A stretch of DNA of 13,698 nt from a virus (IMGVR_UViG_2526164602_000022:1-13698), one strand, 5' to 3'. Numbered from the stretch's first letter, positions 11,365-12,253 are shown. Notes: generated by a model not told the origin, from the sequence alone. Made by a program: numbers and translations.

Positions 11365-12151
11365 CCAGTCTCCCCGAATTACTCATTTCATGCAGCGATG
11401 ACACGATGTCACTGACAGGCGTAACAACGCCCCGACGCTGGTTGGTCAGAATATCGGTTTCAGCTCTGAGTTTATCTCTGGCGGCGTTGATTCTTTCCCG
11501 GTCAGCACGAAGTTTTGGTGCTGTCTCAGCCAGGACGTCCAGCGTCAGCAATGAGCGTTCAATTGACTCGATACGGGCAATATTCCGGTCAAGGGCCTGT
11601 TCAGCTTTGAGTATTTTGTCGTAAAGAGCAACACGGGTTTCCACGTCAGTTGCCTCTTCCAGGTCGGCGAACATCCCTTTAAGTGCCTTAGTTACTGAAA
11701 GTGCGCGGGCCCGGGTGAACACCAGTTCATCGAACAGCACCATGTCGGACGCATCATCCATGAGGTTATCTGCCTCAAGATACTTCGCATATCCACGGTG
11801 TCTTACGGCGTGGGTGTTTCGCTGAGAAAAAGCGTTTGAAGGTGGTAAAAGTCGGGAACCACGAATCCGTTTCGTTTCTGCCGAATTTGCGCAGTTTTTT
11901 TCAGAGTTTTTTGCACATTTTTCATCGCCGGAACCCGCGTCATTGCAGGGTTCTTCATCTGAGATGTCATGATCGATTTCATGATCGGTTTTATGATCAA
12001 TTTCATGATCGATTTTGCCCATTTTTATACGGGTTCTGGCGGTGTTGTAATTAATCTTTTTCTTCCGGCACCAGTCCAGTAATGTTATTCCCGTTTCGGC
12101 ATGTTCGCGTCGGAATGCCTGCTCCAGCTTTTTCCAGTCCAGCTTTGCCAT
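11345..12151 (-). CDS. putative terminase small subunit / DNA-binding packaging protein (268 aa)
   Basis: Sits immediately upstream of and overlaps the large terminase gene by 20 nt. The N-terminus looks like a helix-turn-helix (GITLLDWCRKKKINYNTARTRI), followed by a His/Asp/Glu repeat linker (IDHEIDHKTDHEIDHD) and a C-terminal coiled coil. Confidence 0.55.
   Translation of the reverse strand: MAKLDWKKLEQAFRREHAETGITLLDWCRKKKINYNTARTRIKMGKIDHEIDHKTDHEIDHDISDEEPCNDAGSGDEKCAKNSEKNCANSAETKRIRGSRLLPPSNAFSQRNTHAVRHRGYAKYLEADNLMDDASDMVLFDELVFTRARALSVTKALKGMFADLEEATDVETRVALYDKILKAEQALDRNIARIESIERSLLTLDVLAETAPKLRADRERINAARDKLRAETDILTNQRRGVVTPVSDIVSSLHEMSNSGRLDDIPEE
11967..12014. repeat. four tandem 12-bp repeats (tcatgatcgatt-like), each carrying a GATC (Dam) site, inside the 5' part of the small terminase gene
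   Basis: Seen in sequence: tcatgatcgatt / tcatgatcggtt / ttatgatcaatt / tcatgatcgatt, in frame, encoding (I/T)DH(E/K/D) x4. A further TGATCG lies at about 12234. Confidence 0.85.
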
Positions 12152-12253
12152 GTCACGTTCTGACGTCCTGTGTTAAAAACTGATGCATAATGACCGCTGT
12201 GATTTTTCAGATTTCACACAGCAGCACCATATTTGATCGATATTTGCACAATG

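Follow-up and report, generated by a model that had tools for sequence, protein, structure and literature searches.

The 13,698-nucleotide stretch IMGVR_UViG_2526164602_000022:1-13698 (hereafter the window) represents the late region of a Shiga toxin (Stx) phage of the 933W type and carries four head-to-tail 12-bp repeats, each with a GATC, inside the small terminase gene terS. We consider it rather likely that these repeats constitute the array recognized by the small terminase subunit (TerS) in the packaging (pac) site of 933W-type phages, being the GATC variant of a family-wide hexamer array related to the pac site of phage P1. Relatives of terS conserve their arrays on DNA level, the helix-turn-helix (HTH) of TerS is homologous to that of the P1 recognition subunit PacA, and recognition helix and array are inherited together. 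From these observations, along with the repeat itself and its position within the gene, we infer the binding by TerS, the function as pac, and the cleavage site.

Positions 11345-12253 of the window are 100% identical to phage 933W and to many Stx1- and Stx2-converting phages (Traversvirus), and the terS DNA is 100% identical to 933W gene L0112. Its product matches the terminase small subunit profile of the 933W type over its full length. The presence of four 12-bp GATC repeats in this gene, initially noticed in a reading of the sequence alone (the sequence-only reading), was confirmed by Tandem Repeats Finder (11963-12015, period 12, 4.4 copies, 82% matches) and by the positions of the GATC sites at 11971, 11983, 11995, and 12007. 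On the plus strand the units read, in order, TCATGATCGATT, TCATGATCGGTT, TTATGATCAATT, and again TCATGATCGATT, with TGATCR starting at 11970, 11982, 11994, and 12006; the corresponding coding-strand units ATCGATCATGAA, ATTGATCATAAA, ACCGATCATGAA, and ATCGATCATGAC each contain YGATCA. Their codons (ATC GAT CAT GAA, ATT GAT CAT AAA, ACC GAT CAT GAA, ATC GAT CAT GAC) translate into IDHE IDHK TDHE IDHD, representing TerS residues 47-62. A fifth plus-strand TGATCG at 12234 (GATC at 12235), which had been counted to the same gene, is present but precedes the terS ATG by 83 bp. With 14 TGATCR matches in the window compared with 18 expected, it is not distinguishable from chance, and the closest relative of the TGCGCA type (see below) has CAATCA at this position. 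Being neither significant nor conserved, it was rejected as part of pac.

The array occupies terS nucleotides 139-186 and directly follows the HTH helices. An AlphaFold2 model of TerS built on an alignment of 46 sequences predicts a three-helix N-terminal domain (helices 6-20, 24-31, and 35-41; predicted local distance difference test (pLDDT) ~85), a disordered stretch of residues 45-105 (pLDDT ~30, below 50), and a long helical hairpin (residues 127-238, pLDDT >90). This matches the layout of DNA-binding N-terminus, linker, and coiled coil initially proposed, in a gene assigned to phrog_370. The predicted disordered linker thus starts with the 16 residues encoded by the repeats, directly after the putative recognition helix. 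No Pfam match and no sequence relative in the PDB were found for TerS, and a Foldseek search with the model returned only generic coiled coils (E>0.2); we consider the model useful for domain boundaries only.

The pac site of phage P1 is experimentally proven and comprises seven TGATCA/G hexamers, as stated in PMC10028697 (citing Sternberg and Coulby, Skorupski et al.), which also reports that Dam methylation gates cleavage (citing Sternberg and Coulby). P1 packaging drops ~9-fold when the hexamers are recoded synonymously (PMC10028697). In the P1 record NC_005856, pac cleavage sites and an IHF site are annotated inside pacA. TGATC(A/G) is found at pacA nucleotides 194, 201, 213, and 228 (spacings 7, 12, and 15 bp) and, as a right group, at 324, 336, 347, and 375 (spacings 12, 11, and 28 bp, the last being an outlier). 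The hexamers span nucleotides 194-233 and 324-380 around the annotated cleavage sites, use two reading frames, and encode M-I-I-D-H, N-D-Q, and G-D-H. The window shares several of these properties: four TGATC(A/G) hexamers are clustered inside the recognition subunit's own gene, following the part that encodes the N-terminal HTH, and they likewise translate into Asp-His or Asp-Gln. Both phages encode an adenine methylase (L0094 in 933W), and both are headful packagers and generalized transducers (PMC3752737).

The putative reader proteins are related as well. PacA residues 2-47 align with TerS residues 5-50 (BLASTP E=0.009), comparison of the N-termini by hhalign gave E=6e-5 at a probability of 65%, and the PHROG matches are reciprocal (TerS to phrog_1711, the PacA family, 3.1e-5; PacA to phrog_370, 1.9e-4). 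This relationship is limited to the N-terminal domain and lends modest support; the remainder of the two proteins (268 and 397 amino acids, respectively) is unrelated. Because of the homology of the reader protein and the equivalent position of the site, in addition to the same DH/DQ peptides, the analogy to P1 pac drawn by the sequence-only reading is backed.

Still, the architectures differ. P1 pac is composed of HEX4 and HEX3 arms of TGATCA/G inside pacA, is Dam-regulated and assisted by IHF/HU, and its two irregular clusters, the first of them beginning ~60 bp after the HTH, lie in two frames and flank the cleavage sites and the IHF site. In contrast, the four GATC hexamers of 933W form one cluster directly after the HTH, repeated in perfect 12-bp tandem and read in one frame only. 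As two arms (4 + 3) flanking a cleavage point with an IHF site in between were not found in 933W terS, the array does not belong to the strict P1 type. It probably works like P1 pac in spite of this different architecture. Location of pac inside the small-terminase gene is known from P22-like, Sf6-like, and SPP1-like headful phages, in which protein and site are inherited together; 933W resembles them in this respect and also has a P22-like portal. However, the pac of P22 is a single asymmetric element of ~22 bp and that of SPP1 consists of longer boxes partly upstream of the gene, neither being an array of palindromic hexamers as in 933W. 933W TerS had no detectable sequence or fold match to P22-, Sf6-, or SPP1-like TerS in Pfam, the PDB, or Foldseek (E>0.2).

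The array is the only 50-bp stretch with more than two GATC sites in the entire 61.67-kb 933W genome, and the hexamer occurs four times within terS nucleotides 100-330, all in one frame, compared with six times in 12 kb outside. Taken alone this statistic is weak, since at least four GATC within 50 bp were reached in 19 of 200 Markov-simulated genomes and the four sites go back to one tandem duplication rather than to independent events. The weight therefore rests on the comparative evidence. For this comparison, 31 terS homologues from about ten genera were scanned at gene nucleotides 100-330 (~230 bp) for their commonest complex 6-mer. The homologues, down to ~37% identity, include genes from Citrobacter, Salmonella, Serratia, Yersinia, Brenneria, Pectobacterium, Symbiopectobacterium, and Aeromonas, and the peptides following the HTH look like unrelated low-complexity sequence (SAQKNAQK, VRKTAQS, NSQIRSSQK, SDQKNDHE). 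The scan returned TGCGCA, in five to seven copies, for every gene with a helix 3 of ARR[YH][IL]K, this type being found in prophages of E. coli, Citrobacter, Salmonella, Serratia, Yersinia, and Aeromonas. Five genes with SAKRYIT have TTCGCA (Pectobacterium/Brenneria), and for 933W (TARTRIK) the commonest 6-mer is GATCAT with four copies. A directed search additionally identified YGATCA at exact 12-bp spacing in two Salmonella genes with TARTQIK, in five and three copies. Overall, motif density amounts to 26.5 per kb in gene nucleotides 100-330 versus 0.40 per kb in the remaining loci.

The TGCGCA hexamers occupy all three codon phases (108/27/10), being read as xxT GCG CAR (Ala-Gln), xTG CGC Axx (Val/Met-Arg-Lys), or TGC GCA (Cys-Ala), with spacings of mostly 7-15 bp; TTCGCA is found in two phases. 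Furthermore, 91% of the Ala-Gln/His dipeptides in the linker are spelled T-GCG-CA versus 8% elsewhere in terS/terL (Fisher p=1e-34, a value overstating independence as the sequences are related, although the effect is very large). The retention of the motif across frames and the codon bias therefore identify the DNA, not the peptide, as the conserved object, and the comparison argues that in the TGCGCA and TTCGCA classes it is the DNA that is selected. This supports the initial idea of the hexamer cluster as a DNA site. The 933W array agrees with these arrays in gene, position (nucleotides about 130-260), and similar copy number (3-7), and the 12-bp unit is visibly homologous between the classes (AGTGCGCAGAAA in E. 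coli, AGTGATCAAAAA in Salmonella). With the TGCGCA type it also shares a palindromic TG-NN-CA hexamer, the centre being AT in 933W but CG, and hence without a Dam site, in the relatives. Whereas TGCGCA and TTCGCA arrays are irregular and use several frames, the GATC arrays of 933W and Salmonella are exact tandem repeats. No description of such family-wide hexamer arrays was found in the searchable literature.

Array and DNA-binding domain appear to move together. The DNA of 933W and of one E. coli terS of the TGCGCA type is 93-100% identical upstream and over nucleotides 1-41, and mostly 90-100% identical beyond nucleotide 345, but just 47-50% identical in nucleotides 102-191, a segment containing helix 3 along with the last part of helix 2 and the array. 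Within this segment, 933W nucleotides 102-161 are closest (80%) to the otherwise distant Salmonella gene of the GATC type. Helices 2-3 and the array thus form a mosaic cassette, a pattern to be expected if a protein and its binding site were inherited as a unit. In line with the sequence classes, TART[RQ] of helix 3 is paired with GATC, ARR[YH] with GCGC, and AKRY with TTCGCA throughout the family. Homologues with an unrelated N-terminal domain on the same C-terminal TerS body (P0067-P0073, P0100) are without TGCGCA. At two of their loci (L041 1590-1760, L042 1590-1720), inspected without a chance control, other short repeated motifs were found directly after the new domain: one has GGTACGAAA three times and GTACCTCAA twice in two frames (motifs GGTACGAAA/GTACC), the other three TCCGTC-like sites followed by the complement GGACGGA three times. 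This suggests several interchangeable packaging-specificity modules. A reading of helix 3 as a simple recognition code was rejected, being contradicted by P1 and based on few independent events, and is kept as a hint only. As a separate observation, a second mosaic patch in terS (gene nucleotides 285-344, window about 11808-11867; IRGSRLLPPSNAFSQ versus NSRSGNPHPVARFSD) varies between alleles that are nearly identical otherwise, and does so without linkage to the HTH/array cassette.

A second, distal 12-bp repeat lies further downstream in terS and includes TGCGCA, the hexamer that prevails among the relatives. Enteric relatives of the TGCGCA type have one or two exact TGCGCA at this distal position, 50-90 bp beyond the main cluster, an arrangement that recalls, by analogy, the two arms of P1. 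In genes with a main array other than TGCGCA the distal site is degenerate (TGCTCA, TGCGCG, TGCACA, or TGCGTA). The distal element of 933W is probably the relic of a TGCGCA-type backbone that received the GATC cassette by recombination; it is also a possible second arm of pac. The copy number varies here, too, with KNCA present three times in P0018 and two exact TGCGCA 12 bp apart in E. coli L036.

The sequence-only reading had anticipated a variable repeat number, and comparison across homologues revealed alleles with one, two, three, four, five, and seven copies. Most phage records, including 933W, have four units, and the others have three (LC645411, Oslovirus; phiSTEC801-Stx1a). The terS region was found in 386 of 5,426 complete E. 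coli genomes; 350 matching records are at least 99% identical and have four units, while 17 fall into the 90-95% band, those listed among them spanning 189 bp, which corresponds to three units. Alleles of one, two, five, and seven units come in addition from the protein database. Four copies dominate, with three- and four-copy alleles both occurring in named phages.

In respect to the packaging mode, 933W transduces chromosomal markers in enterohemorrhagic E. coli (EHEC) and K-12 by generalized transduction, and the ends of its virion DNA could not be sequenced, which was interpreted as probable terminal redundancy (PMC3752737). TerL trees classify it as "headful, 933W type" (PMC7317114, PMC6029569). 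As a generalized transducer, 933W is therefore considered headful, an assignment based on the literature and complemented by the P22-like portal. Packaging of the cos type, named at the outset as speaking against a pac site, does not apply, given the generalized transduction by 933W (PMC3752737). Two sets of database records were rejected as sources of termini: the starts of three phage records of Sato et al., 432 bp past terS, are arbitrary because they coincide with an XhoI site (CTCGAG), and PV189400-type records ending near the terS/terL junction are noted as circularly permuted and thus uninformative.

On this basis, the following sequence of events can be proposed. The N-terminal HTH of TerS would bind the row of YGATCA hexamers within its own gene, with TerS, probably oligomeric via its C-terminal coiled coil, engaging the array on concatemeric phage DNA. 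TerS would then recruit TerL, its nuclease/ATPase partner, which would cut at or near the candidate pac and thereby start a headful packaging series. The array would grow and shrink by slippage, three and four copies being found in named or viable phages. As in P1, Dam methylation may modulate how the hexamers are recognized or cut, which is plausible because a GATC is present in each hexamer and a putative N6-adenine methyltransferase is among the phage's own gene products.

Several points weigh against an interpretation of the array as pac. The four hexamers of 933W share one frame and represent a young tandem duplication, for which reason selection on DNA level applies to the sister classes only and not to the 933W array itself. 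The PacA homology is confined to ~45 residues and, at the hhalign probability given above, statistically modest. There is one GATC cluster instead of the two of P1, the next GATC downstream being ~900 bp away, no match to the IHF consensus WATCAANNNNTTR was found anywhere in the window, and the distal hexamers (TGCGCA/TGTGCA) differ in motif from the proximal array. Some partial genes have no more than one or two copies. Switches of helix and array are few in terms of independent events, and their correlation is not universal, as P1 combines helix 3 NTARRYL, similar to the TGCGCA class, with the hexamer TGATCA. Finally, the searchable literature offers no mapped pac site or packaged-DNA ends for 933W, Sp5, phi24B, or Stx phages, and PhageTerm analysis of a 933W-like phage resulted in "Mu-like", i.e., no defined terminus, which is uninformative (PMC7946995).

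A sharper version of the pac reading is a strict P1-style methylation-gated site, where TerS binds the hexamers and TerL cuts only if both strands are Dam-methylated, coupling packaging to the methylation or replication state via host Dam and/or the phage methylase. We regard this version as possible though somewhat unlikely. In its favor, every unit has its GATC inside TGATC(G/A), the P1 hexamer, P1 pac is regulated in this way according to PMC10028697 (citing Sternberg and Coulby), the HTH of TerS is homologous to that of PacA, and the methyltransferase gene of 933W adds circumstantial evidence. Moreover, GATC is otherwise depleted in the 933W genome (157 sites versus ~239 expected from base composition) as well as in the window (39 versus ~60 in dinucleotide shuffles). 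It is opposed by the single GATC cluster, the missing IHF consensus in the window, and the relatives of the same architecture: most of them use TGCGCA or TTCGCA, which are not Dam-methylatable, and because of these hexamers without GATC, Dam control is not family-wide or intrinsic to the TerS family. As an observation in its own right, the GATC depletion stands despite the phage's own adenine methylase L0094.

More broadly, and only tentatively, the TerS family (933W-type and, distantly, PacA) could carry a portable specificity cassette. HTH recognition helices and a TG-NN-CA array in three frames would be swapped together by recombination and thereby re-target packaging, the Stx lineage having the GATC version that would make packaging and generalized transduction dependent on Dam (host or phage methylase).

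The repeat could also represent nothing but slippage-prone, low-complexity code for a flexible linker, its GATC being an accident of the Asp-His codons GAT-CAT. The position in a predicted disordered linker (pLDDT ~30), the copy number ranging from one to seven, and the single frame of all four hexamers would suit such an origin. The simulations point in the same direction, with ~10% of genomes reaching at least four GATC in 50 bp, and outside the array GATCA also spells four of the eight Asp-His/Gln dipeptides in the late genes. We nevertheless judge this explanation improbable: a hexamer array is retained at this position of sister genes in three frames and with an extreme codon bias, it is inherited jointly with HTH helices 2-3 in a mosaic cassette, homologues with an exchanged DNA-binding domain have other short repeats instead, and the homologous region of P1 is a proven pac site (PMC10028697).

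DNA-level conservation in the relatives shows a function of the DNA or RNA, not which one. The hexamers might thus be binding sites for regulation, either for TerS autoregulating terS/terL or for SeqA, which on hemimethylated GATC sites about one helical turn apart would delay the late genes. Regularly spaced GATC sites are SeqA substrates, and the array is located at the 5' end of the packaging operon. However, SeqA cannot account for the TGCGCA and TTCGCA arrays of the relatives, and the homologous array of P1 acts in packaging. The array furthermore changes together with the DNA-binding domain of TerS, which points to TerS as the reader. A regulatory role is therewith a distinctly unlikely explanation.

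The peptide itself was addressed in the sequence-only reading by the proposal that the histidines bind metal or that copy number tunes linker length. Histidine is not conserved among the homologues, which have Gln instead or replace the whole unit by AQK, VRK, or SQIR, and a change of four residues within ~60 disordered ones is unlikely to matter much to the protein. As the histidines are not conserved and the linker is predicted to be disordered, IDH(E/K/D) is best read as the translational by-product of GATCA in one frame. A metal-binding or length-tuning (I/T)DH(E/K/D) linker under protein-level selection is hence very improbable, with the regular four-residue spacing of its four histidines outweighed by AQ, VRK, SQIR, or DQ at the same positions in homologues, the predicted disorder, the lack of a Pfam match for TerS, and alleles of one to seven units.

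The reading of the array as pac is of relevance insofar as phages of the 933W type are generalized transducers and, at the same time, the carriers of stx2 in the most dangerous lineages of EHEC. With a concrete 48-bp candidate at hand, the start of packaging, the mis-packaged host sequences, and gating by Dam or the phage methylase become testable. The candidate pac would also provide a means to construct or inactivate transducing particles, as done with P1 pac. Hexamer arrays in three frames inside terS represent an unusually clean case of a coding region shaped by a DNA signal, and they suggest a simple sequence-based prediction of pac sites, possibly also of packaging specificity, in this TerS family.

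The features of the window are compiled in Table 1. The overlap of terS and terL (11345-11364) recurs in all homologous loci with gene calls fetched, which suggests translational coupling.

Table 1. Coordinates of the pac candidate and of neighboring features in the window.
Feature	Position	Strand	Details
Array of four head-to-tail 12-bp units	11967..12014	minus	TGATCR on plus strand in each unit; candidate TerS recognition array of pac
terS, small terminase subunit, 933W type	11345..12151	minus	268 aa; phrog_370 "terminase small subunit", E=4.8e-125 over residues 1-268
N-terminal HTH coding region of terS	12017..12151	minus	TerS residues 1-45; putative recognition helix 35-41, YNTARTR; homologous to P1 PacA N-terminus
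Second, distal 12-bp repeat	11886..11922	minus	encodes EKCAKNSEKNCAN; TGCGCA 11888-11893, degenerate TGTGCA 11912-11917
Isolated TGATCG	12234..12239	plus	15 bp from IS629 end
terL, large terminase	9658..11364	minus	568 aa; 20-nt overlap with terS
P22-like portal	7514-9658	minus	Pfam PF16510, E=1.4e-128
Major capsid protein	5111-6325	minus	
IS629-type element, IS3 family	about 12254-13563		orfA 12308-12634, orfB 12631-13521; ~100 bp upstream of terS

The insertion sequence (IS) upstream of terS is flanked on its right by 135 bases (13564-13698) without any match of at least 20 bases in 933W. A 3-bp target duplication is not apparent either, so that IS629 is the sign of a rearrangement or deletion and not of a simple insertion. 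Its terS-side junction is shared by just two of 50,697 phage records (LC616054.1, LC616055.1). The element separates terS from the upstream late operon, so that late transcription into the packaging genes may be impaired. In total, the 5' end of terS was struck by IS elements at least three independent times. In JNE Stx2a prophages (LC727843.1, about 1440-1500), IS629 directly follows a three-copy array, GACATC being joined to TGAACCGCC, and truncates TerS at residue 59. In the O157:H7 strain 7.1_Anguil (NZ_CP076232.1, about 1500-1756), ISEc8 of the IS66 family sits inside the array, the break corresponding to window position 11995/11996. These repeated hits reflect either a target hot spot or a repeated selection for packaging-dead Stx prophages.

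Apart from the packaging genes, the window has a 45-bp tandem repeat at 1302-1392 (and 1340-1389) with two copies, 86% matches, and nested 9-bp sub-repeats. It lies inside a minus-strand open reading frame of 645 amino acids (1024-2961), the counterpart of the putative tail fibre gene L0121 of 933W.

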